The position numbers and the translations under genes were made by a program. From the NCBI GenBank assembly GCA_016182655.1, contig JACPGB010000047.1, positions 48,367-112,366 on the forward strand: 64,000 nucleotides of DNA. The letters run 5' to 3'. Below, in pieces: positions 8,376-44,700 of the stretch. Position 1 is the first letter of the stretch; each line of letters begins with the position of its first letter. The notes beneath the pieces are model-generated. The model was not told the origin of the DNA. It saw nothing but the letters and a program-made list of their open reading frames with translations, and did no database searches. The DNA is from Deltaproteobacteria bacterium. Its GTDB lineage: Bacteria > Desulfobacterota > GWC2-55-46.

Positions 8376-8760
8376 CTACCCCGCAGAGGCAGGGGTATCT
8401 TCTAATACTTCCCCTCCCTCAATGGGAGGGGACTGAGGGGAGGGTGACTTCGGCACGCCAATTTCAAATCGGGCGGCTCGGGGGCTCATTGACGCAATGC
8501 CGTCCGTTGTGATTTTGCCCGCCCGGCACGCTTCACCCCCACCCCGCCCCTCCCCCATCAAGGGGGAGGGGGTGAAAAAACGCGGCAAGCCGCGGGGTAT
8601 TTGACCCTAAGAGAGAATAAATTGCCGGCATCCCTTGGAAGGTCTCTGGCCCCCCTCACCCTCCGCCTCTTTCCCACAAGGGGAGAGAGGACCATAAAAA
8701 AACACCCTCGTTTAAACACACTCCGTTGTCGCTTCCCAGCATCCCGTCTTGCAACCTTCC
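8376..8760. repeat. Mosaic of G/C-rich palindromic intergenic repeat modules, including an inverted copy of the ~90-nt element at about 8449-8530
   Basis: Hairpin modules seen by eye: taccccgcagaggcaggggta, cccctccctcaatgggagggg, cccctcccccatcaagggggagggg, ctttcccacaaggggagagag. The ORF-track ORFs here are artefacts. Confidence 0.7.
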
Positions 8761-8798
8761 TTGAAATAATGCTATTTTGATTTAAAGCCAATTCACGC

Positions 8799-10772
8799 AT
8801 GGAAAACATACCTCTCCTAAAAGACATCGTCATACTGATGGCGATATCGGTACCCATCTCGATACTGCTGTCGCGGGTGGGGCTACCGACTGTCATCGGC
8901 TTTCTTGTGACCGGCGTCATCATCGGCCCTTACGGGTTCGGGCTTGTGACCGAAATCGGCACGGTCGAGACCCTCTCGCAGATAGGCATAGTCCTCCTCC
9001 TTTTCACCATCGGGCTTGAGTTCTCGATAACGAGGATGCTTTCCTTGCGGAGGGAGGGCATCCTCGGGGGCGGCTTTCAGGTGGGCATCACCGTCCTCGT
9101 CGTCTTCGCAATCGGCATACTCCTCGGCTACTCGATGCCGGTCTCGCTCCTTTTGGGCTTCATCGTCTCTCTTTCGTCCACTGCCATAGTGTTGAAGCTC
9201 CTCCTTGACAAGGGCGAGGTCAACTCCCCGCACGGGAACCTCTCGGTCGGCATACTCATATTCCAGGACCTCTGCGTGGTGCTCATGGTCATGGTGATAC
9301 AGTCGATAGGCGGCAAGGGGGCGTCTTCGACGGTCGAAATAGCGCGCGCTCTCGGAATTTCCATAATAGCCTTCTTCATCATCGTAATCGCGGTCACCTA
9401 TCTCATACCCAGGCTCTTCAACCAGGTCGTGAAGCTCAGGAACCGCGAGGTCTTCATATTGACGATAGTCCTCGTCTGCCTCGGGACCGCGCTCATGACT
9501 TCCCTTTTCGGCCTCTCGCTCGCCCTTGGCGCGTTCATCGCCGGGCTCGCCATATCGGAATCCGAATACTCGGACCAGATAGTTGCCGAGGTCATCCCGT
9601 TCAGGGATACTTTTTCGGCCCTCTTTTTCATCTCCATCGGCATGCTACTCGATTTCAACTACCTCATCTCCAACCTCCCGGTCATCATCGGGGTAGTCGT
9701 GGTCATAATCGCGATAAAATCGCTCGCGCTCGTAGGTGTCGGGCAGATACTCAAGTATCCCTTGAGGCTCTCGATAGCCGCGGGCTTGAACCTCGCGCAA
9801 ATCGGCGAGTTCTCGTTCATACTCATAAAGATGGGAGACGACTTCGGCTTTCTTAGCGGTGGGCTCTACCAGGGGTTGCTTGCTTCCACGATAATCACGA
9901 TGGCGGCGACCCCGTTCATATTCCAGAGGTCGTCGAAGATAGCGCTCGGCGTGGGCAGGCACCTCGGCAGGCACTCGAGAGAGACCGCGAAAAAGTCCTC
10001 CCTCTCCAACCATGTGATCATCGTCGGCTACGGCGTGAACGGCCGGAACCTCGCGCGGGTCCTTAAGGAAACCGCGATAACCCACATCGTAATGGACATA
10101 AACATGGAGCGGGTGCGCGAGGCCAAGTCCGGCGGCCACAAGGCGGTCTTCGGCGACGCATCCCACCCAGAGGTCATAAAGGCGCTCGGCGTGGAGACCG
10201 CCAAGATGGTGGTCGTGGCCATATCCGACCCGATAAGCACGAGGAGGATAGTAAAGACCGCGCGCGACCAGAACCCTGCGGTCTCGATACTCGTCCGGAC
10301 CCGCTATTTGAGGGAGGTGGAGGACCTCTACAGGCTCGGCGCGAACCAGGTCATACCCGAGGAGTTCGAGACCTCTGTCGAGATATTCGCTCGCGTGCTC
10401 AGGGATTACCGCATCCCCGGGAACATCATCCAGAACCAGATAGACCTCATAAGGCAGGAGGGGTACGCGATGTTCCGGAACCCGTCGATTGCGGGTGAGA
10501 GGCTCACAAAGTTGACGGCGATACTCGAAAAGACCGTGATGGACACATTCTTCGTGGACAAGGGGTGCATGGTGGCGGGCAAGACGCTCGCCGCGCTGGA
10601 TCTAAGGAAGAAGACCGGGGCGACGATTATAGCGATAGTCCGGAAGGGCGAGGCCCGCACCAACCCGCCCGCCGACTTCCTCATCGAGGACGGGGACATC
10701 CTCGTCATACTCGGAAGCCATGCGCAGTTGAACCAGGCGTTTGAGATGCTTAACGAGAAGTGCCCGGCCTGA
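8799..10772 (+). CDS. Monovalent cation:proton antiporter (CPA2/Kef type) with TrkA-N and TrkA-C domains
   Basis: 657 aa. About 12 TM helices, a Rossmann GxGxxG (IIVGYGVNG) and a C-terminal TrkA-C domain. Confidence 0.8.
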   Translation: MENIPLLKDIVILMAISVPISILLSRVGLPTVIGFLVTGVIIGPYGFGLVTEIGTVETLSQIGIVLLLFTIGLEFSITRMLSLRREGILGGGFQVGITVLVVFAIGILLGYSMPVSLLLGFIVSLSSTAIVLKLLLDKGEVNSPHGNLSVGILIFQDLCVVLMVMVIQSIGGKGASSTVEIARALGISIIAFFIIVIAVTYLIPRLFNQVVKLRNREVFILTIVLVCLGTALMTSLFGLSLALGAFIAGLAISESEYSDQIVAEVIPFRDTFSALFFISIGMLLDFNYLISNLPVIIGVVVVIIAIKSLALVGVGQILKYPLRLSIAAGLNLAQIGEFSFILIKMGDDFGFLSGGLYQGLLASTIITMAATPFIFQRSSKIALGVGRHLGRHSRETAKKSSLSNHVIIVGYGVNGRNLARVLKETAITHIVMDINMERVREAKSGGHKAVFGDASHPEVIKALGVETAKMVVVAISDPISTRRIVKTARDQNPAVSILVRTRYLREVEDLYRLGANQVIPEEFETSVEIFARVLRDYRIPGNIIQNQIDLIRQEGYAMFRNPSIAGERLTKLTAILEKTVMDTFFVDKGCMVAGKTLAALDLRKKTGATIIAIVRKGEARTNPPADFLIEDGDILVILGSHAQLNQAFEMLNEKCPA

Positions 10773-10774
10773 CC

Positions 10775-10975
10775 CCTCCCGGCCTCCCCTTGTAAAAAGG
10801 GGAGGAGTTTAAGCAGTCTTTCCCCCTCTCCCCTTGTGGGAGAGGGCCGGGGTGAGGGGGATAATATTGAGGGTGGCATTTTTCACCCCCACCCTAACCC
10901 TCCCCCATCAAGGTGGAGGGGATTTCAACAAAAAAGCCCCCCTCCTTCCGGAGGGGGGCTTTTTAAATCTCATAT
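10775..10975. repeat. Palindromic repeat modules (cctccccttgtaaaaaggggaggag; ccctctccccttgtgggagaggg; cacccccaccctaaccctcccccatcaaggtggagggga)
   Basis: Same module family as at 8376-8760, 15800-16440, 21690-22430 and 28010-28190. Confidence 0.7.
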
Positions 10976-10984
10976 CGGAAATAC

Positions 10985-11275
10985 TTATCTGTCTTCGGGC
11001 AGCTTGTACCCCTTGCCGCCGAACTGCACCGCGTCCGGGTCCTCGCACCTCGGGGGAGATACCGCGTGCACGCCGCCGCACTTGGGGCACTTTCCGACGA
11101 ATGTCTTAAGGACAAATGCCTCGCCGCACCCCTGGCACTTGATCTTAAGCCCGCCATCCGGGATAGGGGCGTTCCTTACGCCGCCGCCGTGCGCCTGGTA
11201 GACGAACTCTATAAGCTCCACACCCTCTGAAAACGGCCCGCCTCCGGACGGTCCGCAGCTTCCGCAATCACCCAT
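10985..11275 (-). CDS. Cys-rich zinc-ribbon small protein
   Basis: 96 aa with Cys pairs DCGSCG, CQGCG and CPKCGG. Strong GAGGAGG RBS 10 nt upstream of the ATG. Confidence 0.5.
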   Translation of the reverse strand: MGDCGSCGPSGGGPFSEGVELIEFVYQAHGGGVRNAPIPDGGLKIKCQGCGEAFVLKTFVGKCPKCGGVHAVSPPRCEDPDAVQFGGKGYKLPEDR

Positions 11276-11596
11276 AAGAAAAACCTCCTCGATATTGAAG
11301 ATCTTTTTTGTTTGAAACCCCTTGGTCCAATCCTTTCAGGATACTATAAAAGAGACCATCGTTCAATTGAAAATATTACTGTTTTCCCGGCCCGGCGCGT
11401 ATGACATTTCTCAGCTACCCTCCTCTCTCGAAAGACACCGATAGCGCTGAATTCCTTTCATCTGTATATTTAAATGTTTCATTTGTATTTTATTTTTGAA
11501 AGCATATTTTTGACTAATTCATCTTTTTGGGATAGAATGTGGGCGAATTCGGAGAAAAGATCCATCCCCGTTAATATCAAGAAAAAGGCCGTATTT

Positions 11597-13948
11597 ATGC
11601 TGGAAGAGACAAGGACCGACGGAATCCCGCCCAGCCTCGAAGACCTCCCCAGAACCGAGATACTCATCATAGAGGACAGCCCGGTACAGGCGGAGGCGCT
11701 CAAGAATACCCTCTCTGTAGCGGGCTACGAGGTCTATGTCGCCCACAACGGCTTTCACGCGCTCGAGGTCATGAGGCGGAGAAGGCCGTCTCTGGTCATA
11801 AGCGACATTGAAATGCCCCTTATCGACGGGTACGAGGTCTGCCGCGCGATAAAAAGGGACCCTCTGCTCTGCGACATACCCGTGATACTCCTCACCGTGC
11901 TGAACGACAAGACCCATGTCATAAGGGGCCTCGATTCCGGGGCCGACGAGTACATCACAAAGCCCTACGACATGGACCTCCTCCTCTCCTCCATCAGGCA
12001 CCTCCTTTCAGGCACCGACGAGGGCAGGATAACCGAGACCCAGCGGGGCCTCGAAGTCGAGATCGACGGCAAAAGGCACGTCATCACCGCCGGGCGGAAG
12101 GAGATAATGGAGGTCCTCCTTTCTACTTACGAAAACGCGATGCACCAGTACCGCAAGCTCTTCGAGGCCGAATGCGCCCTTCAGGACCTTAACGGGACCC
12201 TCGAGGAAAAGGTCCGGCTGAGGACGGCCGAGCTTGAGGCCGAGATAAACGAGAGGAAGAGAGCCGAGCAGGAGGTAAGGAAGCTCTCGACGATAATCGA
12301 GCAGAGCGCGAACGTCGTCTTCGTAACGGACGGCTATGGCAAGATACAGTTCGTGAACCCCATGTTCGAAAGGCTTACCGGGTTCAAGGGTTCGGAAGCC
12401 GCGGGCAAGACCCTCTGGGAGCTTCAGGCCAACCCCGACCTAAGGGAAGACCTCCACAGCATATGGGATGGGGTGCTCAAGGGCAAGCCATGGAGCGGGG
12501 TACAAAAAAGCGAGAAACGCGACGGAGGGGAGTACTGGGTCGAGAGCGTGATAACGCCGCTCAGGAACGAGTCCGACGAGATAACCGGATACCTTGCCAT
12601 CCAGGAGGATGTCACCGAAAAACGACAGGCCTCCGCGAGGATCAAGTACCTCGCCCAGTACGACCCTGTAACGGGTCTTCTCAATAGGGCAAGGTTTTTG
12701 ACGCGCCTCGAGGAGGCGATATCCTTCAGACGGGGGGAGACCCGCGCGCACTCGCTCCTTATAGCCAATGTCGACAGGTTCAAGCTCATAAACGACGCTT
12801 ACGGCCACAACACGGGAGACGAGGTCCTTAAGGGCGTAGCGCGGCTCCTCCTCTCCCTTTCGGAAAACACCCCCGAGCTCCGGCCCGACCGCGCGGGCGA
12901 TGTCCTGCTCGCGCGGCTCGGGGCCGACGAGTTCGCCGTCTTTTTCGGGTGCGCCTCAAGGGAGGAGGCGGCCTCCGTGGCCGAGGCGCTCCGTTCGGGC
13001 GTCGAGGCGATGTCCTCCTCGATAGCCGAGAGGATAACCCTGTCCATCGGCGGCTCGTTCTACCCCGAGCACTCCGAGGACTCGAAGGGGCTCCTTTCCA
13101 AGGCGGACGCGGCGCTCTTCAGGGCAAAGACGCTCGGCAGGAACCGTTTCCACGCCTTCGAGCCCGAGGACCGCGACCTCGAAAACATGCATATGAAGCT
13201 CGAATGGAAGAACCGCATTGTGAGCGCGATAGAGGACGGGAGGTTCCTGCCGTGGTTCCAGCCCATCATGGATCTAAAGAGCAACAAGGTGAACCACTTC
13301 GAGGTGCTAGCGAGGATGCGGGACGAGTCCGGCGATATACTGCCGCCGAGCCGCTTCATCGAGATAGCCGAGTCGTTCGGCATCATCAACAACATCGACA
13401 GGATGATAATAGACAAGGCCTTCCGGTTCAGGGACCAGACCCATCGGGACAACGGCGTCACCTTCTCGATGAACATATCGGGTAAGAACCTCGGGGACAC
13501 CGACTTCCTCTCGTTCCTCAAGGGCAGGATAGGCGAGATGGGCCCCACGGCAAAGAACTTCATATTCGAGATAACCGAGACCGCGGCGGTGCGCGACGTC
13601 GACAGGGCGGTCCGTTTCATCAACACACTCAAGGAGATGGGGTGCAGGTTCTCGCTCGACGACTTCGGTGTGGGGTTCTCGTCTTTCGCCTACTTGAAAA
13701 TGATGGATGTGGACTTCCTCAAGATTGACGGGTCTTTCATAAAGAAGCTCGACACCGACCAGAAGGACCGGCTGTTCGTCAAAACCATAGTCGATGTGGC
13801 CGGCGAGCTCAACATAAGGACCGTCGCCGAGTTCGTGGAGAGGGCCGAGACGCTCGATATCCTCCGGGAGTACGGGGTCGACTACGCGCAGGGGTACTAC
13901 ATCGGGATGCCGGGGCCGGGGCTGGAGAGCGTGGTAGGGAGGGCTTAA
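11597..13948 (+). CDS. Response-regulator receiver + PAS + GGDEF (degenerate GADEF) + EAL protein, probable c-di-GMP phosphodiesterase
   Basis: REC domain with the phospho-acceptor Asp in VISDIEMP. A PAS region follows. RLGADEF stands in place of RxGGDEF. EAL-domain motifs are present (EVLAR, DDFGVG). The start is uncertain: 11537 and 11474 are alternatives. Confidence 0.8.
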   Translation: MLEETRTDGIPPSLEDLPRTEILIIEDSPVQAEALKNTLSVAGYEVYVAHNGFHALEVMRRRRPSLVISDIEMPLIDGYEVCRAIKRDPLLCDIPVILLTVLNDKTHVIRGLDSGADEYITKPYDMDLLLSSIRHLLSGTDEGRITETQRGLEVEIDGKRHVITAGRKEIMEVLLSTYENAMHQYRKLFEAECALQDLNGTLEEKVRLRTAELEAEINERKRAEQEVRKLSTIIEQSANVVFVTDGYGKIQFVNPMFERLTGFKGSEAAGKTLWELQANPDLREDLHSIWDGVLKGKPWSGVQKSEKRDGGEYWVESVITPLRNESDEITGYLAIQEDVTEKRQASARIKYLAQYDPVTGLLNRARFLTRLEEAISFRRGETRAHSLLIANVDRFKLINDAYGHNTGDEVLKGVARLLLSLSENTPELRPDRAGDVLLARLGADEFAVFFGCASREEAASVAEALRSGVEAMSSSIAERITLSIGGSFYPEHSEDSKGLLSKADAALFRAKTLGRNRFHAFEPEDRDLENMHMKLEWKNRIVSAIEDGRFLPWFQPIMDLKSNKVNHFEVLARMRDESGDILPPSRFIEIAESFGIINNIDRMIIDKAFRFRDQTHRDNGVTFSMNISGKNLGDTDFLSFLKGRIGEMGPTAKNFIFEITETAAVRDVDRAVRFINTLKEMGCRFSLDDFGVGFSSFAYLKMMDVDFLKIDGSFIKKLDTDQKDRLFVKTIVDVAGELNIRTVAEFVERAETLDILREYGVDYAQGYYIGMPGPGLESVVGRA

Positions 13949-14012
13949 GGTTTAAGGAACAAGAAAAGCCGTTTTCCTCCATTACCTTTATGACAGCCTC
14001 GTACTGACTCAC

Positions 14013-15169
14013 CTACACCCTCTCATACGGATCAAACAATTTTTTATACTCGTCCAGCGCGAACCTGTCGGTCATCCCCGCGATGTAGTCGCAGACGACG
14101 CGGTGCTTGTCCCGGCCGGACTTGTCTATCAGCGAATGTATATGCGGCGGCAGGAGCTTCGGCGCGCGCAGGTAAGCCTTGAAGAGCTCCTTTATTATCC
14201 GCTCGGCCTTGTCAGCCATGCGGACGACCCTGTGGTGCCTGTAGAGGTTCTCTTTGAGGAACTTCTTCAACTGGCGGTTCTTCCTGTCCATCTCCGGGGA
14301 AAACCGCGCGACTATCCCCCTCGCCCTGACCGCGTCGAGCGACCCTATCCCTTCGGCCTCGATCGTCTTCAAGACCGTCTCGACGAGGTCCGTAACCTGC
14401 TCGTTGATTATCTTTACGATGGTCTGATATTTGAGCACCTTGAAGTCCGCCTCCGGATAAAGCGCCTTCACCTCGTCGAAGTGCGCGCTCCAGAGGTCGA
14501 CGGACTTTAATGCAGAGGGGTCTATCATCTCCGACGATATACCGTCGTCTATGTCGTGGTTGTTGTAGGCTATCTCGTCGGCAAGGTCCGCAATCTGCGC
14601 TTCGAGGCACGCGGACTTTTCTTTTTCATACTCGGAATTTACGCCGGGCCTGTCGTGCTCCGAGGAATGCTTCACAATACCCTCCCTCACTTCATACGTA
14701 AGGTTGAGACCGTTGAACCCCGGATACCTTTTTTCAAGCTCCTCGACTATCCGGAGGCTGTGCGCGTTGTGCTCGAAGCCGCCGTGGTCTGACATAAGCT
14801 CGTTCAGCACGTTTTCCCCGGAGTGGCCGAACGGGGGGTGACCTAAGTCATGGGAAAGCGCGATGGCTTCTGATAAATCTTCATTAAGGCCGAGAGCTCT
14901 CGCTATAGTCCGGGAGATCTGCGCGACCTCTATGGTATGAGTAAGTCTCGTCCTGTAGTGGTCGCCTTCGTGGAATACGAAGACCTGGGTCTTGTACTCA
15001 AGACGCCTGAATGCGTGACAGTGGATTATGCGGTCGCGGTCCCTCTGGAAAGGGGTCCTGAAGGGATGCTCGGCCTCCGGGTGCTTCCGGCCCCTCGTCT
15101 CCGCGCTCTTTACGGCGTAGGGGGCGAGCCTTTGGGCCTCGAGTTCCGGGTAGTTCGGCTCTTTTGACA
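14013..15169 (-). CDS. dGTP triphosphohydrolase-like HD-domain protein
   Basis: HD motif HDLGHPPFGH and dGTPase-family conservation. The ATG at 15169 has a GGGGA RBS. The ORF-track start at 15200 is a TTG extension. Confidence 0.8.
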
Positions 15170-15203
15170 TTGACAAATCCCCAAACAATAATAAAATCAA
15201 ACT

Positions 15204-15799: not shown

Positions 15800-16440
15800 C
15801 TTCTTGCGCTTGACAGAGGCGGGCCGAAAGGCCCGCCTTTTTTTATTTAGAAGAGAGGAAGAAAAACATTTAAAACCACCCCTCCCAACCTCCCCTTGTA
15901 AAAGGGAGGAGCCAACCATAATCTCCCCCGGCCCCTCTTTAGAAAAGAGGGGGGTTTTAACCTCCCCTCCCTCGATGGGAGGGGATTGAGGGGAGGGTGA
16001 CTGCTCGGCGCAGGGCCAAAGTCGGTACGGAGCCTCCGGGGTAATCGATTCTCCTGCCGTAAGTTACAAATTTGCCTGCCCGGCGAGGGCCCCCTCACCC
16101 CGGCCCTCTCCCACCAGGGGAGAGGGGGTTCAGGCTTCGTTGGATCTCAAAACGCTGGACCCCGCTTTAAGCATGCGGGGATGACAATTTGGTTTTGCCT
16201 GTCATTCCCGAGGCATTAATCGGGAATCCAGTTAAAGGGCCTCCATAATCTCCCCCGCCCATCTTTAGAAAAGAGGGGGGATTAGCGATCTTCTCCTCTC
16301 CTTTACAAGGGGAGGTTGGGAGGGGTGGTTTGAAAGCGACCTCCCCTTGCCCCTCCTTGGTAAGGAGGGGAATCAAAAATCATCCCTTTTCCGAGGGGGG
16401 ACAGTTCGGCTTTGTCTTCATCCTGAGCAAAACCCCTACT
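15800..16440. repeat. Large mosaic of palindromic repeat modules, including an inverted ~90-nt element (about 16003-16090) and GTCATTCCCG...CGGGAAT hairpins
   Basis: Multiple G/C-rich hairpins seen by eye. The ORF-track ORFs 15847..16098 and 16167..16376 are artefacts. Confidence 0.7.
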
Positions 16441-21689: not shown

Positions 21690-22430
21690 CGCCTTTCTTT
21701 GGATAGGCGGGACTTTCCAGTCCCGCAGTAACCTCTCGCTTTCTTGACGGGATAGGGTTGAGTAAAGGAAGAAAAAATCTTCTCACCCCCATCCCGACCT
21801 TCCCCCGGCAAGGGGGAAGGAGTTAGATAAGTCGTCATTCCCGCTAAAGCGGGAAGCCAGCTCTAAAACGACACCTCCCCACCTCCCCTTGTAAAAAGGG
21901 GAGGAGATAAACAGCTCCCCTCCTTGACAAGGAGGGGCCGGGGGAGGTCGTCTTAACCCCGTCTCGGAAATGAGATACCCCGCCGAAGTGGGGGTGTCTT
22001 CTAATACCTCCCCTCCCTCGACGGGAGGGGACTGAGGCGCGCGGCGCAGGGCCAAAGCAGGTACGGAGCCTCCTGATAAATCAATCCTCTGTGGCGCGAT
22101 ACCGAATTGCCCGCCCGGCCGGTCTTCACCCCCATCCTGACCTTCCCCCATCAAGGGGGAAGGAGTTTTTCCACGCGTTTCAAGCGGATCTGTGTCTTGA
22201 TCAGCACCGGCACAACATGGGCGCGTGTGGCTGTACGAATTAAAGGGTTCAGGTTGCAACCCTGAAGCCGCAATCAGCTATAGGAATCTAATAGGACTAA
22301 CCGCTCCAACACCGTCATTCCCGCGAAAGCGGGAATCCAGCGTCTTCATATTAGACCTCCCCTCCCTTGACGGGAGGGGATAAAGGGGAGGGTGAGTAAC
22401 CTCAAAATAAAAAACCCGCCTTTCAGCGGG
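21690..22430. repeat. Largest mosaic block of palindromic repeat modules, including an inverted ~90-nt element (about 22036-22112) and two GTCATTCCCGC-GAAA-GCGGGAAT hairpins
   Basis: About 740 bp without a credible CDS. The ORF-track ORFs 21783..22259 and 21542..21838 are artefacts. Confidence 0.7.
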
Positions 22431-23884: not shown

Positions 23885-23955
23885 GTAGGGTGGGCTCCGC
23901 CCACCATCATTGATTTTGAGGTTTTTTTTGGTGGGCGCAGCCCACCTACCATACC
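23885..23955. repeat. Twin-hairpin element: (GGTGGGC-n3-GCCCACC) x2 separated by a T-rich spacer
   Basis: A second copy lies at 25230-25300. The first hairpin plus the U-tract may act as a tonB terminator. Confidence 0.6.
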
Positions 23956-24289: not shown

Positions 24290-24426
24290 GATAGGGTTGT
24301 CCTGTTATCAAAACGCAAACGCCCGCCGGGCTTCCGGTGGGCGTTTGTTTTTTATAATGACTACATTATGACTTAGCCTCCCCTCCCTTGACGGGAGGGG
24401 ATAGAGGGGAGGGTGAAATACCCACC

Positions 24427-25173
24427 TCACCCCTTTACCTCTATCGACGCCCCCGGGTCGAACGGGTTCTTCCGCGCGGCCATCGAGAAGAGATACGGGT
24501 AGCTCTTCTTGAGATACTTCATGTAAAAAATCCACTCGGTGACGAGGAGGCCGCAGACCCTCTTCAAATCCCCCTCGATGTGTTTAAGGTCCGCCTCGGT
24601 GAGCCCCTTCAAATCCTTCCTCCCCTCAAGCTCATCGAATACATGAAAGACGGCGCGGAGGAGCTCAGTGAAAGAATCGTGTTCAAGGAGGTTCGGGTTC
24701 TGGAGGAGCGTCAGGAGGAACTCCTTTTTGTCGTGAAGGAGGGCCTTCAAACCTTCGAGCTCTCCGTTGAACCCCAGAATCGAAAAATCCGTCTTTCCCG
24801 AAGAGCGCGCCGCGCGCTTGAAGTCCGCGCCCGTCCAGTCCTTTACGCCGGAAAGCTCTTTAAGATGCCCGTCCTTAAGCGCACCCTTCTCGACGAACAC
24901 CCTCAGGAGCTCGGTGCCGAGTTCGCTGAAAAAGACGCCTATGGCCATGTTCATCTTCTCCATCATGGCCCGCTTTTCCCGGACGCTCAATATCCTCTCG
25001 ATGATGACGGTGACGATCAATACCTGGACCGGGACAAAGGCGAGGTCCTGAAGGAGGTAGAAGAAGGTGTCCCTGGGCGCCTCAAACAAGGTTATCTGCA
25101 GCCCGTAGAGCACGGCCGAGAGCGCGACGAGCCCAGCCCCGAGCGCGAGCATGTATGCGGTGTGCTTTTTCAT
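24427..25173 (-). CDS. Hypothetical membrane protein (three N-terminal TM helices and a cytoplasmic helical domain)
   Basis: 248 aa, no recognisable family. Confidence 0.45.
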   Translation of the reverse strand: MKKHTAYMLALGAGLVALSAVLYGLQITLFEAPRDTFFYLLQDLAFVPVQVLIVTVIIERILSVREKRAMMEKMNMAIGVFFSELGTELLRVFVEKGALKDGHLKELSGVKDWTGADFKRAARSSGKTDFSILGFNGELEGLKALLHDKKEFLLTLLQNPNLLEHDSFTELLRAVFHVFDELEGRKDLKGLTEADLKHIEGDLKRVCGLLVTEWIFYMKYLKKSYPYLFSMAARKNPFDPGASIEVKG

Positions 25174-25229
25174 GGCGTTAGCGATACTAACATAAATCGT
25201 TTGTTGGGGAAAAGAGAAAGGGGAAGAGA

Positions 25230-25412
25230 TGTTGTTGTAGGGTGGGCTCCGCTCACCGCTGTTGATTTGATTTATTATTTTTGGTGGGCATGGCCCACCC
25301 TGTTTTCGTCATTGCGAGGAGCTGTCCTCGCCGGACCGGCAAAGCCAGACCAAGCGGTTGTGCCTAAAAAAGTCTACTGGCTCCGATTTGGCTTTGGCCG
25401 CGCGCCGAGCGC
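25230..25412. repeat. Second twin-hairpin element copy followed by a plus-oriented ~90-nt element (25325-25412)
   Basis: gtagggtgggctccgctcacc...ggtgggcatggcccacc, then gtcctcgccggaccggcaaagcc...gcgcgccgagcg. Confidence 0.6.
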
Positions 25413-25459
25413 AAGCGACGAAGCAATCTCAAGGGCTTGGTTTAAAAAAATGGGGCGGA

Positions 25460-25921
25460 TTATTTCCACATTCTCGAATCAAATTGGAACGGTTCTGGTT
25501 TTTCGATGTTGATCCTATTGAAATCCGGATGGTTTGGATTCAAAAGGAAGTTATATTCGTCAGGCACTATTACCGTAGGGACTTGAAGCACCGGAGAACT
25601 CGTTGATTTTACCCATTCAGTTCCAATAATCCTTGTTGAGTCGTTTGGAGGCTGCATGTTCCAGTCCTCTGGAAGCTGTGCCATGCTTATTTTCTCAATC
25701 TTCAGGTCGTCAGGCACTTCGATTGTGAAGTAAACAAATTCGATGTGCTTACGCTCTTCTCCGATATGGACAAAATATTCAAGGGCGGCCAGTGAGCGGC
25801 TTTGCGCCGTATATATCATTTTTATGCCGGCGAAATTCCATCTGCCGGGATACAGGCGCGCGCCTTCCCCGTCAAAAGCATTGGCACCGTGCTTCCGCTT
25901 GACAATCCTGTATACGGTCAA
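25460..25921 (-). CDS. RES-domain toxin (RES-Xre TA system)
   Basis: 153 aa with the RES-family signature arrangement (R...Y...S...E). Overlaps the antitoxin gene by 4 nt. Confidence 0.75.
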   Translation of the reverse strand: MTVYRIVKRKHGANAFDGEGARLYPGRWNFAGIKMIYTAQSRSLAALEYFVHIGEERKHIEFVYFTIEVPDDLKIEKISMAQLPEDWNMQPPNDSTRIIGTEWVKSTSSPVLQVPTVIVPDEYNFLLNPNHPDFNRINIEKPEPFQFDSRMWK

Positions 25922-26349
25922 TCAAGCACTCCGTATTCTATTCGCCCCAGAAGATTCTCAACTTCTTTCTCCCCGGCTTCGGTTTGGATCATCTCAAGGG
26001 GCCTGCGTCCGCCAAGCCCGATCTGTTCACGATTAAGCCATTTTATGGCCATATCACCGTCTTCAAAGACCTCGACTGCAAGCGTGTAGATTTTAGCGAG
26101 CCTGAACAATCTGTCGCTTTCGACTGGAGACATCCTGCGCTCTGATTTTCTTCGCATCATCGTTCGCACGCTCATCCCGAGAAAGTCGGCAAATTGATCA
26201 TCCTTAAGCCCCAGGATTTGCTTAATGTGTTTTCCGGCATTCCATGGTATGCCCTGTCGGATGACTTGATCAAAATCTATCGTATTCTTGATCTTATGGT
26301 GCAGGGCTTTTTCTCCGCCAAGAGAGGCGGCTATTTGTTGCACGGTCAT
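25918..26349 (-). CDS. Xre/MbcA/ParS-type antitoxin (DUF2384-like C-terminal toxin-binding domain)
   Basis: 143 aa encoded immediately upstream of the RES toxin in the same operon. Confidence 0.7.
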   Translation of the reverse strand: MTVQQIAASLGGEKALHHKIKNTIDFDQVIRQGIPWNAGKHIKQILGLKDDQFADFLGMSVRTMMRRKSERRMSPVESDRLFRLAKIYTLAVEVFEDGDMAIKWLNREQIGLGGRRPLEMIQTEAGEKEVENLLGRIEYGVLD

Positions 26350-27963: not shown

Positions 27964-28009
27964 CTTATTCTCTTAGGAGACACTCCGCTGAATTACTTGA
28001 AGCCTTAAA

Positions 28010-28190
28010 AACCACCCCTCCCAACCTCCCCTTGTTAAGGGGAGGAGATAAAACGCGAAACCCCTTCGTCCATCTCAGCTCCCCTCCTTACCAAGGAGGG
28101 GCAAGGGGAGGTCGTATTTCTTTTCACTCCGGAGAGGGAGTTCCACCCTCCCCTCTATCCCCTCCCGTCAAGGGAGGGGAGCTTTACAAA
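28010..28190. repeat. Palindromic repeat modules between gcvPB and gcvPA
   Basis: cctccccttgttaaggggaggag; cccctccttaccaaggaggggcaaggggagg; ccctcccctctatcccctcccgtcaagggagggga. Confidence 0.7.
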
Positions 28191-35085: not shown

Positions 35086-35150
35086 GCTACCCCGCGGCAC
35101 AATGGACGGGGTAGCGACTTAACTTTCCCTCCCTCGACGGGAAGGGTAGT

Positions 35151-36658: not shown

Positions 36659-36773
36659 TACAACCGATTGAAGGGTTCAAAAGGTCGGCCTGGAGCGCGC
36701 CAAATACAAATCGTGGCCTATGGGCTTTCCTGTGCACAGCCTATTGATGCTACTTTGCCCGCCTGGCGAAGCC

Positions 36774-38495
36774 CTACCTTATATACGCCTCGGTCACGTA
36801 CCTCCTCATCATCCTGTGGGAGTTGAAGTAGTTGGCGTTCTTTCCGATGGCGTTCTGCATCATCCTTACCCAGATGAGCCTGTTTCCGTAGAAGGTAGCC
36901 ATCACCTCGTGCTCGAGCTTCTGATACAGGTCGTCGGCGTCGAGCGCGTCGGTCGATTGGACGAGCGTCGATTCCGTCGGGTTCGGGCCGATGGCCCAGC
37001 CTGTGTACCCCTCGATATGCCCCTCTATCCACCATCCGTCGAGGACGCTGAAGTTCATGACGCCGTTGTGCGCGGCCTTCATGCCGCTCGTGCCCGAGGC
37101 CTCGCGGGGGCGCATCGGGGTATTCAGCCATACGTCCACGCCCGAGACCATCTTCAGCGCGAGCTCCATGTTATAGTTCTGGAGGTAGACTATCTTTATG
37201 TCCGGGTGGAGCTCGCGCGCCTTCCTGAATATCTCCTCGATGTTCTTTTTCCCGTCGTAGTCGCGGGGGTGGGCCTTTCCGCCGTATATGAGCTGGAGCC
37301 TGCCCTTGCCGATCTTGCGGAGCCGCTCGGTATCGGAGAACAAGAGGTTCGCCCTCTTGTATGCCGTCGCGCGTCTTGCAAACCCGATGGTGAGCGTATC
37401 GTAGTCCATCCCCGCGTCCGTCAGGTTGTTGACGTAGTCTATGAGCTTCTTTTTCGCCTCCATGTGCGCGGCCCATATCTCCTCGTCCGGGACCTTGCCG
37501 ATCCTGACGAAAAGCTCCGGCTCGTTCGCCCATCCGGGGAGGTACTTGTCATATAGCCTCGCGAACGACTCGCATGTCCACGTGAACGAGTGCACCCCGT
37601 TCGTTATCGCCTGTATCTTGTAGCCGGGGAAGAGCATCTTCGAGACCTCGCCGTGCTTCTTGGCGACCCCGTTTATGTACTTGCTGAGATTCATGGCCAG
37701 AAGCGTCATGTTGAGCTTGTCTTTTCCGGCGAGCTCGCGGAGGACGTCGAAAGGTATCAGCTCCCCCGCGACCTCCTTGACGAGCTCGTAGGAGAACTTG
37801 TCGTGGCCCGCCTCTACTGGAGTGTGCGTCGTGAAGACGCAGAGGTCTTTTACCCGCTCCACGTCCCAGACCTGCCTTTCGTCCCAGACCGACTCGATGT
37901 CGCGCTTGTATCTCTGCAGGAGCTCGAGAGTGAGCAACGCCGCGTGCCCCTCGTTCATGTGGTACTTCTTTATGCGTATGCCGATGGCGCGGAGCATCAT
38001 GACCCCGCCGATGCCGAGGACCACCTCTTGCTTTAGCCTGTAGCGGTCGTCCCCGCCGTAGAGGTAATCCGTTATCGAGCGGTCCTCGGGCTCGTTCTCC
38101 GGGAGGTCCGTGTCGAGGAAGATTATCGGCACCGACCAGTTCGTTACTATATTAGATATATTGTGGACCCAGGCCTGGACCGAGACCTCTCTGCCCTCTA
38201 TGGAGAGGCGGATCTTCTGGGGGAGGAGAGTCATATGCTCCTCGGGGCTCCACTTCTCCGGGTGCTCTTTCTGGGTCCCGTTCGCGTCAAGCTCCTGCCT
38301 GAAGTACCCCTTCCTGTGGAGGAGTGTGACCGCGACGACCGGGAGGTTCAAGTCCGCCGCCGATTTTATGGTGTCCCCGGCGAGCACGCCGAGGCCGCCG
38401 CTGTAGGTAGGTATGTCGTTCCTGAAGCCTATTTCCATCGACAGATAGGCTATCTGCGGCTCTGATAACAGGTCCTGCGAAAGAATGAATTTCAT
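36774..38495 (-). CDS. Alpha-glucan phosphorylase (GT35; glycogen/maltodextrin phosphorylase, short form)
   Basis: 573 aa with the PLP-lysine motif EASGTSGMK. Confidence 0.85.
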   Translation of the reverse strand: MKFILSQDLLSEPQIAYLSMEIGFRNDIPTYSGGLGVLAGDTIKSAADLNLPVVAVTLLHRKGYFRQELDANGTQKEHPEKWSPEEHMTLLPQKIRLSIEGREVSVQAWVHNISNIVTNWSVPIIFLDTDLPENEPEDRSITDYLYGGDDRYRLKQEVVLGIGGVMMLRAIGIRIKKYHMNEGHAALLTLELLQRYKRDIESVWDERQVWDVERVKDLCVFTTHTPVEAGHDKFSYELVKEVAGELIPFDVLRELAGKDKLNMTLLAMNLSKYINGVAKKHGEVSKMLFPGYKIQAITNGVHSFTWTCESFARLYDKYLPGWANEPELFVRIGKVPDEEIWAAHMEAKKKLIDYVNNLTDAGMDYDTLTIGFARRATAYKRANLLFSDTERLRKIGKGRLQLIYGGKAHPRDYDGKKNIEEIFRKARELHPDIKIVYLQNYNMELALKMVSGVDVWLNTPMRPREASGTSGMKAAHNGVMNFSVLDGWWIEGHIEGYTGWAIGPNPTESTLVQSTDALDADDLYQKLEHEVMATFYGNRLIWVRMMQNAIGKNANYFNSHRMMRRYVTEAYIR

Positions 38496-38713: not shown

Positions 38714-38734
38714 CGACCGGACTGGAGGGACCTT

Positions 38735-41104: not shown

Positions 41105-41142
41105 GCCCCTCGAGTCACAGAAAACTCTTTGGAGCCCCCAGG

Positions 41143-42930
41143 ATGGACGAAAAAGAAGCATCGCCCTCGCGCGCCTTTTCCGCGTTCGGCTACGCGGCGA
41201 GGATCGCGGCCCTTGTTATCCTCTCGGAGACGCTCATAATGGCCCTCCTCGGCTATCTCCAGGTCTCCAGGGTTGCGTCCGCGGCGATAGACACATCCCT
41301 CCTCACCCTTATCCTCATCCCCTCTATATACGCCTGGGTCTACCGCCCCCTTTCAAAGGAGATCGCTCTCAGGCACGAGGCGGGATTGAAACTCGAGGAG
41401 GCGAACGCGAAGATCAACGGATACGCCCGCTCCCTTGAAGAGAGGATAGAGGAAAAGGTCAGGGAGCTTAAATCCACCTACGCCCAGTACAAGGCCCTGC
41501 TTGAGACCTCGAACGACATGATAATCGTGGCTGATTCGGAGAGAAGGATAATCTTCTGGAACCGGGTCGCCGAGACGTCTTTCGGGTACTCGCGGGAAGA
41601 GGCCATCGGCAGGGACGTCGTCTTGACGGTCCCCGAGATTTACAGGGAGGCTCACCTTAAGGGCTTCGCCGAATTCATGGTCACCGGAACGATAAAGTCC
41701 AGGCTCCGCGAGGTGGAGGGGCTCAGGAAGGACGGGACCCTTTTTCCCATAGAGCTCTCCCTCTCTTCATATTCAGTGGGAGACAACGTATTCGTGATGG
41801 CGATACTCCGCGACATAACGGAGAGGAAAAAGACCGAGACGCAGATAAAAGACCAGCTTGAAAGGTTGAAAGCCCTCAGGAACATCGACACGGCCATAAC
41901 CGCTTCGATGGACTTGCGCTTGACGCTCGGCGTCATAATCGACCAGATAGCCGCGACCCTAAAGGCGGACGCGGCTGACATACTCTTGCTGAACAAGGAC
42001 ACTGCAAGGCTCGAGTTCCACGCAGGAAAGGGGTTTTATACAGACGCCCTCAAGGAGACGAGGCTCAAAATCGGCGAAGGGCACGCGGGCAGGGCGGCGT
42101 TTGACGGCAAACTCCTCTGCATAAGGGACTTGAGGGCCTCCGGCGACGACTTCGTGCGCGCGCCTCTTTTCAAGGACGAGGGGTTCGTATCCTATTGCGC
42201 GGTCCCGCTCGTCTCAAAGGGCGCCTTAAAGGGCGTCCTCGAGGCCTACTCAAGGGCTGAGCGCACGCCTCCCCCGGATTACTACGACTTCCTGGAGGCT
42301 CTCGCCCTGCAGGCCGCGATAGCCATTGACAACGCCTCGCTCTTCAACGACCTCTACAGGGCCAACATGGAGCTCTCGATGGCCTATGAGACGACGCTCG
42401 AGGGGTGGTCCAGCGCGCTCGACTTACGTGACAAGGAGACCGAGGGCCACTCCCGGAGGGTGACCGAAATGACGGTCAGAATAGCCAGGGCCATGGGGTT
42501 CTCGGACGTGGAGCTCGTCCACATAAGAAGAGGGGCGTTGCTCCACGATATCGGGAAGATGGGCATACCCGACGCCATACTCCTTAAACCCGGGCCGCTC
42601 GACCCGGACGAGACGGAGATAATGAAAAAACACCCTGTATACGCCTACGGCCTCCTGAGCCCCATCCTTTATCTCCGTCCCGCGCTCGACATCCCTTACT
42701 GCCACCACGAAAAATGGGACGGCTCCGGGTATCCGAGGGGGCTTAAGGGCGCGGAGATCCCGCTTTCGGCGAGGATATTCACCCTTGTCGACATCTGGGA
42801 CGCGCTCCACTCCGACCGCCCGTACAGGAAGGCCTGGGACGACGAGCGGATAAGGGAGCACTTGAAGTCACTCTCCGGCAAGGCGCTCGACCCTAAGGTG
42901 GTCGAGGTCTTTTTCAGCATGAACTGGTAG
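41143..42930 (+). CDS. PAS-GAF-HD-GYP c-di-GMP phosphodiesterase (membrane anchored)
   Basis: HD...HHEKWDGSGYPRGL HD-GYP motif, with PAS and GAF domains upstream. Start at MDEKEAS. The ORF-track extension that overlaps slt is rejected. Confidence 0.8.
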   Translation: MDEKEASPSRAFSAFGYAARIAALVILSETLIMALLGYLQVSRVASAAIDTSLLTLILIPSIYAWVYRPLSKEIALRHEAGLKLEEANAKINGYARSLEERIEEKVRELKSTYAQYKALLETSNDMIIVADSERRIIFWNRVAETSFGYSREEAIGRDVVLTVPEIYREAHLKGFAEFMVTGTIKSRLREVEGLRKDGTLFPIELSLSSYSVGDNVFVMAILRDITERKKTETQIKDQLERLKALRNIDTAITASMDLRLTLGVIIDQIAATLKADAADILLLNKDTARLEFHAGKGFYTDALKETRLKIGEGHAGRAAFDGKLLCIRDLRASGDDFVRAPLFKDEGFVSYCAVPLVSKGALKGVLEAYSRAERTPPPDYYDFLEALALQAAIAIDNASLFNDLYRANMELSMAYETTLEGWSSALDLRDKETEGHSRRVTEMTVRIARAMGFSDVELVHIRRGALLHDIGKMGIPDAILLKPGPLDPDETEIMKKHPVYAYGLLSPILYLRPALDIPYCHHEKWDGSGYPRGLKGAEIPLSARIFTLVDIWDALHSDRPYRKAWDDERIREHLKSLSGKALDPKVVEVFFSMNW

Positions 42931-42977
42931 ACCTCCGCCATTCCCTATTCCGCGTTTACCTGATAGAATCATAGGCT

Positions 42978-44210
42978 ATGGAAGGTCCGCTCGCCATAGC
43001 CGCGCTATATATATTCAAGGCCGCCTTTGGCTGGTGGTTGAGCCTTTTAAACCTGCGGAGCCTCCAGAAAAGCAGCGGCCCGGCGCTTGACGGGCGCTTG
43101 AGTGCCGGGCTTCTCGAAAAGTCTCAGGCGTACCTCGCGGAGAACACGCGCTTCGCCGTCCTTTCCTCTGTCGTCTCTACCTCTCTTATAATAGCCTTTG
43201 TCTTCGGCCTTCTTGTCCATTATGACAGATGGGTCGCCTCTTTCGGTCTCGGGTTCATCGCATCCGGCATTGCCTTCTTTCTCATCCTCTCGTTCGCAGG
43301 CGAGCTCGCCTCCATCCCGTTTTCCCTCTACAGGACCTTCCGTATAGAGAAACGGCACGGCTTCAACGCGATGACCCCCGGGCTCTGGCTCACGGACCTC
43401 GTAAAGTCCCTTGTCCTCTCCACCGTTCTTTTTTCGGTCGTCGCAACGGGCGGGCTTTTCGTCGTCAAGGCCTTTCCCGGCCTCTGGTGGCTCATCGGGT
43501 GGGCCTTTTTCCTCGTATTCTCGATATTCATGATGTACATCTCGCCCTATGTCATCGAGCCGCTCTTCAATAAATTCGAGCCTGTCGACGACGAGCGGTT
43601 TAGAAAAAAGATAGAGTCGCTTGCCGAACGGGCGGGTATAAGGATAAAGGCGATAATGAAGATAGACGCGTCGCGGAGGACGAAACACACGAACGCCTAC
43701 TTCACCGGATTCGGGTCCGTTAAAAGGATAGTCCTCTTTGACACGCTTCTTAAAAACCTCACCCCGGCTGAGGCGGCCTCGGTCCTCGCGCACGAGATCG
43801 GCCACTGGAAGCGTCGCCACCTTTTGAAGCACTTGTTTCTCCTTGAGGCCGGCGCGCTCGCGGCGTTCTATATATCGTTCAGGCTTATCAACGGGGACCT
43901 CCTCGCGCGACTTTTCGGGCTCGGAGACCCGGGCTTTTTCGCGAAGCTCGTCTGCCTCTCGTTGCTCTGGGCAATAGCCGGTTTTTTTGTCGCCCCGGTA
44001 CTGAACGCAATCTCGAGGAGGCACGAGCGGGAGGCCGACGCTTACGCGGCCCGGCTCGAAGGGGCTGAGGCGATGACAAGCGCGTTAGTGAAACTCACCG
44101 AGGACAACCTGTCCAACCCCTTCCCGCACCCGCTCTACGTATTTTTCAACTACTCGCACCCGCCGGTTGAGGAGAGGATAAGGCTATTAAAGGGGAAGAG
44201 GGATGTTTAG
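42978..44210 (+). CDS. M48-family zinc metallopeptidase (Ste24/HtpX-like)
   Basis: HEIGHWKRRH HExxH motif and multiple TM helices. Confidence 0.8.
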   Translation: MEGPLAIAALYIFKAAFGWWLSLLNLRSLQKSSGPALDGRLSAGLLEKSQAYLAENTRFAVLSSVVSTSLIIAFVFGLLVHYDRWVASFGLGFIASGIAFFLILSFAGELASIPFSLYRTFRIEKRHGFNAMTPGLWLTDLVKSLVLSTVLFSVVATGGLFVVKAFPGLWWLIGWAFFLVFSIFMMYISPYVIEPLFNKFEPVDDERFRKKIESLAERAGIRIKAIMKIDASRRTKHTNAYFTGFGSVKRIVLFDTLLKNLTPAEAASVLAHEIGHWKRRHLLKHLFLLEAGALAAFYISFRLINGDLLARLFGLGDPGFFAKLVCLSLLWAIAGFFVAPVLNAISRRHEREADAYAARLEGAEAMTSALVKLTEDNLSNPFPHPLYVFFNYSHPPVEERIRLLKGKRDV

Positions 44211-44214
44211 GCGG

Positions 44215-44700
44215 TGGGATTGTCTTTTAACCCTTAAGGTCGCTCGCCCCATGCCCGGGGAGTTTTGAAAAACAAAAAAAGAATTTTTGTTTTTTATTCT
44301 GTCTTTACAAACACGCGGGCGCATGGCGGAGAGCGCCTCAGGGAGGCTGGGGTGAGCGAGCCGGGGAAGGATAGACGCGAAGCGCTCGGGGGGCGAGCGA
44401 GCGGTCCTCGCCGGACGGGCAAATCCGCATCGGGCGGTTGTGCTTCATTTAGCCCTCTGCAACCCGATTTGAAATTGGCACCGCGCCGAGCGGGGGGAGG
44501 AAGAAAGCGCTCGGAGCCATCGCCAAAAGCGCGCGGAGCGCGCAAAAAGGCCTTGCCACAAAGACTTTGAGTTTTTCGGCGTTTTTAAAAAACTGGATTC
44601 CCGCTTAAAGCACGCGAGAATGACAGTTACTCAAAAAATCATACAACTAAGGATTACGGTTACAAAACTGCATCCCAAAAAACAAAAAAGCCCCGGTCGC
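44215..44700. repeat. Repeat block with a plus-oriented ~90-nt element (44404-44482) and an inverted GTCATTC...GGGAATCCAG module
   Basis: gtcctcgccggacgggcaaatccgcatc...cccgatttgaaattggcaccgcgccgagcgg. Confidence 0.65.

Follow-up and report, generated by a model that had tools for sequence, protein, structure and literature searches.

Intergenic repeat mosaics in a deltaproteobacterial genome segment combine at least five unrelated short-repeat families, including predicted intrastrand-triplex motifs

Introduction

BoxC elements, which are the same as the PIT (potential intrastrand triplex) elements of Maher's group (Hoyne and Maher 2000, as cited in PMC4666352) and as TM-ECO, are three-armed repeats of the class II purine-motif intrastrand-triplex type (Holder et al. 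2015, PMC4666352), and 3610 copies of this triplex motif (TM) have been reported in 262 proteobacterial genomes (PMC4666352). The TM-ECO consensus is CCCTCNCCC-N3-6-GGGNGAGGG-N3-GGGNGAGGG, with second loops of types TTA and CCG, and the Escherichia coli sequence forms a stable triple helix in vitro as single-stranded DNA, as seen by circular dichroism and nuclear magnetic resonance (NMR) (PMC4666352). The elements have been tied to local genome instability by statistics only (PMC4666352), and their function and spread have been a standing question since their description. Here we describe intergenic repeat blocks in a 64,000-nt stretch of an uncultured deltaproteobacterial genome (contig JACPGB010000047.1, positions 48,367 to 112,366; hereafter the window; G+C content, ~57%), in which the main module has the three-arm layout of a TM and stands side by side with other short repeats. 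These include hairpins resembling dRS3, which in Neisseria (ATTCCC-N8-GGGAAT) flanks RS units in neisserial intergenic mosaic elements (NIME; PMC1797815).

Architecture and covariation of the main module

A preliminary description of the window had listed nine intergenic blocks, composed of hairpin modules and a ~90-nt element (e90). All nine blocks are noncoding, hold the modules quoted for them, and lie far above chance in shuffle tests: the pattern CCCCTCCC-N3-7-GGGAGGGG-N2-7-GGGGAGGG occurs five times in the window and never in 100 shuffles, and an e90 pattern occurs seven times and never in shuffles. The C-rich modules described as hairpins are likewise present as quoted, but nearly all of them have three arms, whereas a third arm had been given for one module. 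They consist of a pyrimidine stem, a complementary all-purine stem, and a third purine-rich arm mirroring the purine stem, with stems of 8 to 10 nt and a first loop of 3 to 7 nt. The third arm sits downstream as a second G-rich arm, or upstream as its complement, and is the mirror image of the adjacent arm. For example, variant v3 reads CCTTCCCCC-TTGAT-GGGGGAAGG-TCA-GGATGGGGG, and variant v6 reads CCCCTCTTT-TCT-AAAGAGGGG-CCG-GGGGAGATT.

We scanned both strands for class II intrastrand triplexes with an ITxF-like search, requiring a pyrimidine stem, a loop, a purine stem, a loop, and a third stem antiparallel to the purine stem, with stems of at least 8 nt, a G.G, A.A, or T.A third-strand rule, and one mismatched triplet tolerated. 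We found 22 motifs in 64 kb (Table 1) and none in 30 dinucleotide-preserving shuffles; with decayed copies, the window holds 22 intact and ~5 decayed TMs. The pyrimidine and purine stems of the 22 copies pair with at most one mismatch, every triplet fits in 12 of them, and 20 have a second loop of exactly 3 nt.

The mirror relationship also emerges when hairpins are the sole starting point. The window has 20 perfect 9-bp pyrimidine/purine hairpins, one of which (10937-10958) is a T-tailed terminator without a third arm. A third arm matching at 8 or more of 9 positions accompanies 17 of the remaining 19 under the mirror (antiparallel) rule, compared with 4 under a direct-repeat rule; the two exceptions are the copy at 22009, in which the third arm is cut by an adjoining e90, and one scoring 7/9. 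Eight stem variants occur side by side, with purine stem/third arm pairs such as GGGAGGGGA/AGGGGAGGG, GGGAGAGGG/GGGTGAGGG, GGGGGAAGG/GGATGGGGG, and AAAGAGGGG/GGGGAGATT. Across the eight variants, 69 of 72 positions fit the triplet code, compared with a mean of 46 when third arms are permuted among variants (P = 5e-5) and 41 under the direct rule. We therefore rejected a direct-repeat reading of the third arm, since the mirror rule fits far better by either measure. The v3 stem is asymmetric, so that both the mirror rule and T.A-T triplets are visible in the copy at 21786-21820.

The base composition of the third arm bears on which strand is constrained. Where the purine stem has A, the third-arm base is A in 28 cases and T in 20. 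The purine motif tolerates both; on the C-rich strand, however, such a T becomes an A, which is incompatible with the pyrimidine motif, and the constraint thus fits the G-rich strand. Purine-motif triplexes are reported to form in DNA and not in RNA (PMC4666352). That the third arms of eight variants obey the purine-motif code, T opposite A included, argues for selection on the three-stranded DNA fold itself.

All 22 TMs are noncoding and lie in tandem or convergent gaps, and none is in a divergent promoter gap; gap classes were assigned by hand with domain hits, as automatic open reading frame (ORF) picking took antisense ORFs. Neighboring TMs in inverted orientation include 10824+/10886-, 21871-/21917+, 16295+/16338-, and 28013-/28081+. 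Two blocks are within operons, as the preliminary description had proposed and domain searches bear out: one (3303-3505) separates a MacB-type ATPase gene (2637-3302, -) from a MacA-like adaptor gene (3506-4669, -), and the other (27964-28190) separates gcvPB from gcvPA. Some hairpins of the blocks are ordinary T-tailed terminators (10931-10964, 15817-15838, and 44679-44718).

Relationship to BoxC/PIT/TM-ECO elements

The repeats had been put forward as a distinct family. However, the main module corresponds to the described BoxC/PIT/TM-ECO intrastrand-triplex motif (PMC4666352): because the same architecture is present in E. coli and in other phyla, the main modules are, as judged from sequence, members of a known cross-phylum class and not a new family. 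Shared features are the 9-nt C-rich stem, 3- to 6-nt loop, 9-nt purine stem, 3-nt loop, and 9-nt reverse-Hoogsteen stem, together with second loops of types CCG and TTA, strictly intergenic location, and common inverted pairs. Only 10824-10858 and 16092-16126 fit the TM-ECO consensus itself, both with CCG as the second loop and ~90% identity to E. coli copies; the other 20 copies have different G/C-rich stems in the same architecture.

Matches outside the window are widespread. The segment 10818-10866 matches 5231 of 5426 complete E. coli genomes, at a median of 9 places in each, with 80 to 95% identity and under no annotated feature. The E. coli wcaA-wzc gap, for example, has an inverted pair of types A and B, in which the right-hand copy reads TCTCCCTCGCCCCTTTGGGGAGAGGGCCGGGGTGAGGGGGAT, compared with TCCCCCTCTCCCCTTGTGGGAGAGGGCCGGGGTGAGGGGGAT in the window. 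Searched with one genome per species, the CCCCTCCC variant is found in at least 120 contigs, and the phyla among the matches listed include Alpha- and Deltaproteobacteria, Nitrospirota, Planctomycetota, Chloroflexota, Bacteroidota, and others. Among the matches listed, pyrimidine/purine hairpins that were not chosen by the search pattern have a mirror arm in 44 of 50 cases, and in none does the direct rule alone apply. An assembly artifact is excluded, as the modules are also present in independent metagenomes, GTDB genomes, and complete E. coli genomes.

The window nonetheless differs from the described elements in several respects. At least eight stem variants coexist, and the local density is ~0.34 per kb, compared with 23 copies in the 4.6-Mb genome of E. 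coli K-12. The copies form part of larger mosaics that also contain other repeat families, and they bracket e90 three times; some are inside operons; and the host belongs to an uncultured deltaproteobacterial lineage.

Rfam, which had been suggested as a check, gives no match in the window at gathering score, and all matches with E ≤ 1 are chance ones. For example, both strands of the inverted TM pair at 10823-10921 match mir-3718, an animal microRNA precursor (E = 2e-4 and 3e-3, far short of gathering score), which shows how TM repeats can give false RNA-family hits.

Recent gain in the lineage and conservation of the arms

Gene order is preserved in relatives (amino-acid identity, ~80%), running HD - Slp - small ORF - QueC - zeta/AAA - PRTase - Zn-ribbon - 252 aa - TatA - TonB - ... 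- gcvPB - PA - H - T. A syntenic 21.5-kb locus of a relative (L343) has no TM and no e90, in contrast to 15 TMs and 3 e90 copies over the matching part of the window. The gcvPA-gcvPB gap is 26 to 30 nt in relatives (30 nt in L343) and 227 nt in the window, the convergent gap between tatA and the 252-aa gene is 5 to 42 nt (5 nt in L343) compared with 766 nt, and the gap between Slp and the small ORF is 70 nt compared with about 640 nt. Because the orthologous gaps in relatives are short and repeat-free, the mosaics are lineage-specific insertions that enlarged short gaps, and the operons work without repeats in the relatives. The gain of TMs is thus recent, and TMs are able to enter operon-internal gaps without destroying the operon.

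The density contrast is similarly large, with 22 TMs per 64 kb (0.34 per kb) in the window and 14 per 619 kb (~0.02 per kb) in the relatives' metagenome loci. The TM set of this lineage stands out in density and diversity and is demonstrably of recent origin; should the whole genome bear out the density, the lineage would be well suited to studying how TMs multiply in nature.

A counterpart of the three-TM gcv-gap block, 83% identical, is present at a nonorthologous site in a related metagenome genome, downstream of a 796-aa ORF in L130. Between the two blocks, the nine arms are identical at 80 of 81 positions, compared with 74 of 118 for loops and spacers (Fisher P = 5e-11). Such constancy of the arms beside drifting loops and spacers indicates that all three TM arms are under purifying selection or conversion.

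Interpretation and alternatives

We consider it likely that these mosaics are dominated by BoxC/PIT/TM-ECO triplex motifs that act as DNA-level fold-back repeats and accumulate where insertions are tolerated. From the evidence in the window together with the published properties of the E. coli element (PMC4666352), we infer the following steps. The G-rich strand, when single-stranded in replication, transcription, or repair, would fold back twice into a purine-motif triple helix made of G.G-C, A.A-T, and T.A-T triplets, a fold that the E. coli element adopts in vitro. The triplex would impede polymerases and favor slippage, template switching, and recombination, and TM copies would be gained, duplicated, and shuffled locally. 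Copies would be retained only at sites tolerant of insertion, namely the 3' ends of genes, convergent gaps, and roomy gaps inside operons, and alternating-orientation arrays would build up from local gain and shuffling. The e90, the dRS3-like hairpin, the TACCCCGC hairpin, and the GTAG REP (repetitive extragenic palindromic) doublets would be co-residents of the same permissive gaps, and mRNA effects of the 9-bp G/C hairpins in operons would be a by-product rather than the reason for the three-arm design.

Several observations weigh against this interpretation. In vivo dimethyl sulfate footprinting in E. coli did not reveal a stable triplex, and TM-ECO in double-stranded form has the properties of an ordinary duplex (PMC4666352). 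The G-rich, low-complexity arms give a high background, with ~46 of 72 apparent matches under permutation. The G-rich strand is on + in 9 TMs and on - in 13, without bias relative to the replication strand or transcription, so no process is singled out. We found no target-site duplication, no conserved insertion-site signature, and, among the window proteins scanned, no spreading enzyme, and the window may be a local hot spot of TMs.

A different route to accumulation is that TMs are copied to new sites through a single-stranded, triplex-folded intermediate by a host or phage enzyme, moving between phyla on phages. We regard this as unlikely, but if true, this genome would record a recent TM burst: the density is 0.34 versus ~0.02 per kb, the orthologous gaps are empty, multi-TM blocks recur at nonorthologous sites, and copies are found in phage head/packaging modules. 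Holder et al. reported that the E. coli element is not associated with phages or plasmids (PMC4666352). The TM motif is present in at least 120 viral contigs; two IMG/VR contigs carry TMs among phage head/packaging genes, L278 at 1947-1980, 3014-3047, 7382-7415, and 12693-12726, and L299 at 3070-3101, 5713-5744, 5803-5834, and 9244-9276, with terminase, portal, and major head genes as neighbors (PHROGs). In L278, the four copies are in one orientation, and each is followed by CCTGTAC ~35 nt on.

The modules could instead act in RNA, either as G/C hairpins that protect upstream mRNA from 3' exonucleases or set operon expression, or through GGAGG/CCTCC-like arms that sequester or mimic Shine-Dalgarno or anti-Shine-Dalgarno sequences. 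REP hairpins stabilize upstream mRNA in E. coli, two blocks are inside operons (macA/ATPase and gcvPB/gcvPA), GGAGG/CCTCC occurs within the arms, and there is a weak, subthreshold likeness to the C-rich alphaproteobacterial small RNA (sRNA) ar14 (E = 0.9). However, relatives run the same gcv operon with a repeat-free gap, so the operon does not need the repeats; third arms within one gap point either way relative to transcription; and most copies are in convergent gaps beyond terminators. The frequent third-arm T fits a DNA purine motif and not an RNA pyrimidine-motif triplex, and the E. coli elements have neither promoter nor terminator activity in published tests (PMC4666352). A primary role in RNA is, in our view, quite improbable.

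The preliminary description leaned toward REP/BIME (bacterial interspersed mosaic element) or miniature inverted-repeat transposable element (MITE)-like mosaics, and in part this holds: the repeats are interspersed, modular, BIME/NIME-like in arrangement, and only intergenic. In the REP/BIME version, a REP-associated tyrosine transposase (RAYT), its gene lying elsewhere in the genome, would recognize the palindromes in hairpin form and copy them. TMs resemble REP, BIME, and REPIN elements as short G/C-rich intergenic palindromes, clustered in alternating orientation, and varying in presence among relatives; moreover, genuine GTAG REP doublets are present at 23885-23949 and 25237-25302, and at a relative's orthologous spot. 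Nonetheless, the C-rich modules have no conserved GTAG/GTGG head, which in the window is confined to these two doublets, and they have an obligatory, covarying third arm that a hairpin-recognizing RAYT does not need. TM modules cross many phyla among the matches listed, whereas REP/RAYT pairs are lineage-specific. A RAYT, a Y1 transposase domain, or another transposase was absent among the ~45 window proteins scanned with Pfam and NCBIfam, and the ORF between the REP doublets encodes a predicted membrane protein that matches nothing in either database. RAYT-driven copying of the main modules is very unlikely.

Of the remaining alternatives, the first is that two G-rich arms provide four G-tracts for a G-quadruplex or i-motif competing with the hairpin, with the mirror symmetry incidental. 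A canonical quadruplex motif (G3+ N1-7, four times) is present in 9 of the 22 copies (v1, v2, and v4), and G-rich triplex sequences are able to fold into quadruplexes (PMC4666352). However, the triplex code is obeyed as well by the 13 copies without a canonical G3 motif, 3 of which are also without a G2 motif, so that the quadruplex is not the common denominator of TMs; the position-by-position A/T correspondence between arms is not required for it, and NMR of the E. coli element shows a triplex and not a quadruplex (PMC4666352). We give this reading hardly any credence. TMs do share homopurine/homopyrimidine mirror symmetry, and in some variants G-tracts, with H-DNA mirror repeats and G-quadruplex motifs, but a TM has its own Watson-Crick partner on the same strand, so one strand suffices for a triplex, and most variants lack a canonical quadruplex motif. 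BIMEs are known or proposed as protein or recombinase sites. Equally far-fetched is the idea that the modules are duplex sites for a host nucleoid-associated or recombination protein reading a G-rich mirror repeat beside a palindrome, in which arms covary because subunits read both: although the three arms are conserved while loops drift, and dRS3 is a known or proposed protein/recombinase site (PMC1797815), a single protein would not read eight stem sequences in one genome, as a structural code would, and the element crosses phyla (among the matches listed) without a shared specific factor.

The ~90-nt element

The blocks had been described as one family, but they are mosaics built from at least five unrelated short-repeat families, of which e90 is one. 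A profile search (nhmmer) finds 10 full copies in the window and 74 in relatives' metagenome contigs (Ga0154409, Ga0209317, and Ga0154453), often in tandem. Its 5' box, GTCCTCGCCGGACGGGCAAA, is near-invariant, the middle is variable, and the 3' box, TTGGCCCYGCGCCGAGCRG, includes a hairpin of 4 bp that shows compensatory changes. The ends, CTCGCCGGACGGGCAAA and TTTGGCCCTGCGCCGAG, are only ~75% complementary and represent putative imperfect inverted termini. In the window, e90 is bracketed by inverted TMs three times (8410-8571, 15963-16126, and 22009-22163), and in relatives' contigs all 74 copies stand without an adjacent TM.

One relative's contig is syntenic with window positions 32.7 to 37.2 kb at 82 to 93% identity, and in an orthologous gap the window has one diverged e90 (36695-36777) compared with two tandem e90 copies and a TM remnant in the relative (L151 440-660). 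This difference in copy number shows that tandem e90 arrays expand and contract. The four-unit array in the window, at 62679-63043, falls beyond the range given in the preliminary description and was omitted from it; the list of loci, confirmed for all nine entries, had also overlooked 23885-23949, 25237-25411, and 36695-36777.

The e90 is a separate, lineage-specific, MITE-like family. It is like MITEs in being ~90 nt long and noncoding, with conserved, putatively inverted termini of imperfect match and a variable middle, in dozens of copies across related genomes, and with polymorphic copy number at an orthologous site. It is unlike them in forming head-to-tail tandem arrays and in the compensatory changes of its 3'-box hairpin; moreover, we saw no duplicated flanks that would mark a target-site duplication, and no pair of 5' and 3' boxes encloses a gene, as expected of a parent insertion sequence, in 619 kb of relatives. 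We rejected a structured-RNA reading, since the predicted fold of a single copy is no more stable than that of shuffled sequence on either strand (z = -0.8 to +1.8) and the alignment supports only a 3-bp and a 4-bp hairpin, as well as a CRISPR-like reading of the tandem arrays, in which the 'spacers' within one array are identical.

The block at 44215-44700 does contain repeats, but none is a C-rich module; it is composed of an e90, a ~330-nt repeat, one dRS3-like hairpin, and a terminator. The ~330-nt repeat (44231-44566) comprises one e90 and an A/T-rich palindrome (AAAAACAAAAA..TTTTTGTTTTT), and there are at least 10 copies in the related Ga0154409 genome. Copies in relatives include L151 2190-2645 and others in L138, L170, L131, L189, and further loci. 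A probably related copy fills the pyruvate kinase-glyoxalase gap of Ga0154409, which is 65 nt in the window. The solo e90 (25319-25411) is bracketed, within 25304-25430, by GTCATTGCGAGGAGC ... GCGACGAAGCAATC, resembling the halves of a GTCATT..AATC-type hairpin repeat split by insertion.

Co-resident repeats

Five dRS3-like hairpins of the type GTCATTCCCG..CGGGAATCCAG are present in the window. The 20-bp dRS3 inverted repeat is exact at 22317-22336, and the other four differ in stem or spacing. The likeness to NIMEs is that short hairpin repeats alternate with units of 50 to 150 nt, that array length varies between strains, and that the window module GTCATTCCCGCGAAAGCGGGAATCCAG holds an exact ATTCCC-N8-GGGAAT. 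The differences are that there are only five hairpins in the window, most of them not paired around a unit, and that the host is unrelated. In the window, the arrangement of dRS3 pairs flanking RS units is approached by one inverted pair only (16155-16231), and we saw neither a dRS3-specific recombinase nor a filamentous prophage.

Two further kinds are hairpins headed by TACCCCGC, found ahead of v1 or v1-like motifs, and the GTAG-headed doublets. Only these GTAGGGTGGGC doublets have the look of true REPINs in the window. A relative has a REP doublet with compensating stem changes (GTAGGTTGGGC..GCCCAAC) in the orthologous gcvPB-tonB gap (L222 4020-4110). Apart from the intergenic repeats, two coding regions ~4.7 kb from each other share a direct repeat of 102 nt (55945-56046 and 60668-60769; 78% identity), which has matches in relatives' loci too and probably represents a protein domain common to paralogous genes.

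Table 1. Positions of repeat copies in the window
Feature	Position	Strand	Found by
TM v8 CCCCCTTT/AAAGGGGA/AGGGGATT, 8 triplets, 1 mismatch	3384..3415	+	TM scan
TM v6 CCCCTCTTT/AAAGAGGGG/GGGGAGATT, 9 perfect triplets	3438..3470	-	TM scan, hairpin set
TM v1 TCCCCTCCC/GGGAGGGGA/AGGGGAGGG, 9 perfect triplets	8410..8444	+	TM scan, pattern search
TM v4 CCCCTCCCCC/GGGGGAGGGG/GGGGTGGGGG, 10 perfect triplets	8536..8571	-	TM scan
Degenerate TM CCTCTTTCCC..GGGAGAGAGG, upstream arm CCCTCACCC	8650..8690	-	
TM v5 CCTCCCCTT/AAGGGGAGG/GGAGGGGTC	10771..10805	-	TM scan
TM v2 CCCTCTCCC-CTTGT-GGGAGAGGG-CCG-GGGTGAGGG, TM-ECO/BoxC consensus fit, type B loop CCG, ~90% identity to E. coli copies	10824..10858	+	
TM v4' CCCTCCACC/GGGGGAGGG/GGGTGGGGG, second loop TTA as in E. 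coli type A	10886..10920	-	TM scan
TM v5	15878..15909	-	TM scan
TM v6, perfect	15920..15952	-	TM scan
TM v1, perfect, abutting e90	15963..15997	+	TM scan, pattern search
TM v2, TM-ECO consensus, perfect, abutting e90	16092..16126	-	TM scan
Degenerate TM v6 CCCATCTTT..AAGAGGGG	16247..16279	-	
TM v5	16295..16326	+	TM scan
TM v7 CCCCTCCTT/AAGGAGGGG/GGGGAGGTC	16338..16370	-	TM scan
TM v3 CCTTCCCCC/GGGGGAAGG/GGATGGGGG, perfect	21786..21820	-	TM scan, hairpin set
TM v5	21871..21904	-	TM scan
TM v7	21917..21949	+	TM scan
TM v1, third arm shortened by adjoining e90	22009..22036	+	hairpin set
TM v3, perfect	22129..22163	-	TM scan
TM v1, perfect	22358..22392	+	TM scan, pattern search
TM v1, perfect	24379..24413	+	TM scan, pattern search
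TM v5, gcvPB-gcvPA gap	28013..28045	-	TM scan
TM v7, gcvPB-gcvPA gap	28081..28113	+	TM scan
TM v1, perfect, gcvPB-gcvPA gap	28146..28180	-	TM scan, pattern search
v1-like hairpin without third arm, TTTCCCTCCC..GGGAAGGG	35124..35147	not assigned	
Partial e90, 5' box only	3322..3366	+	
e90, TM-flanked	8449..8538	-	nhmmer profile
e90, TM-flanked	16002..16094	-	pattern, nhmmer profile
e90, TM-flanked	22039..22129	-	nhmmer profile
e90, solo	25319..25411	+	pattern, nhmmer profile
e90, diverged	36695..36777	-	nhmmer profile
e90 within ~330-nt repeat	44399..44492	+	pattern, nhmmer profile
Four e90 units in tandem, period 90, directly after corA stop codon	62679..63043	+	
dRS3-like hairpin GTCATCCCCGC..GCGGGGTCCAG	16155..16185	-	
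dRS3-like hairpin GTCATTCCCG..CGGGAATCCAG	16201..16231	+	
dRS3-like hairpin GTCATTCCCGCTAAAGCGGGAAGCCAG	21834..21860	+	
dRS3-like hairpin, core ATTCCCGCGAAAGCGGGAAT is exact ATTCCC-N8-GGGAAT (22317-22336)	22314..22340	+	
dRS3-like hairpin	44593..44624	-	
TACCCCGC..GGGGTA hairpin, 5' extension of v1 TM; 70-nt composite 86% identical to 21968-22037	8377..8397	+	
TACCCCGC-type hairpin ahead of v1 TM	21975..21997	+	
TACCCCGC-type hairpin ahead of v1-like hairpin	35086..35115	+	
GTAG-headed REP doublet GTAGGGTGGGC..GCCCACC / GGTGGGC..GCCCACCTAC, separate REPIN-like family	23885..23949	not assigned	
Second REP doublet, same GTAGGGTGGGC family	25237..25302	not assigned	

For annotation, the blocks are to be treated as repeats, and neither as genes nor as sRNAs. 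Spurious ORFs arise from them, as at 21783-22259, 44265-44570 (101 aa, from the ~330-nt repeat), and 62608-63051, and the repeats probably also break short-read assemblies.

The two REP doublets bracket a low-GC (50 to 52%) islet. The bracketed ORF (24427-25173, -) encodes a predicted membrane protein of 248 aa, and the islet (24427-26349) also holds a RES toxin/Xre-MbcA-ParS antitoxin pair (25460-25921 and 25918-26349, -); at the corresponding place, relatives have unrelated small ORFs.

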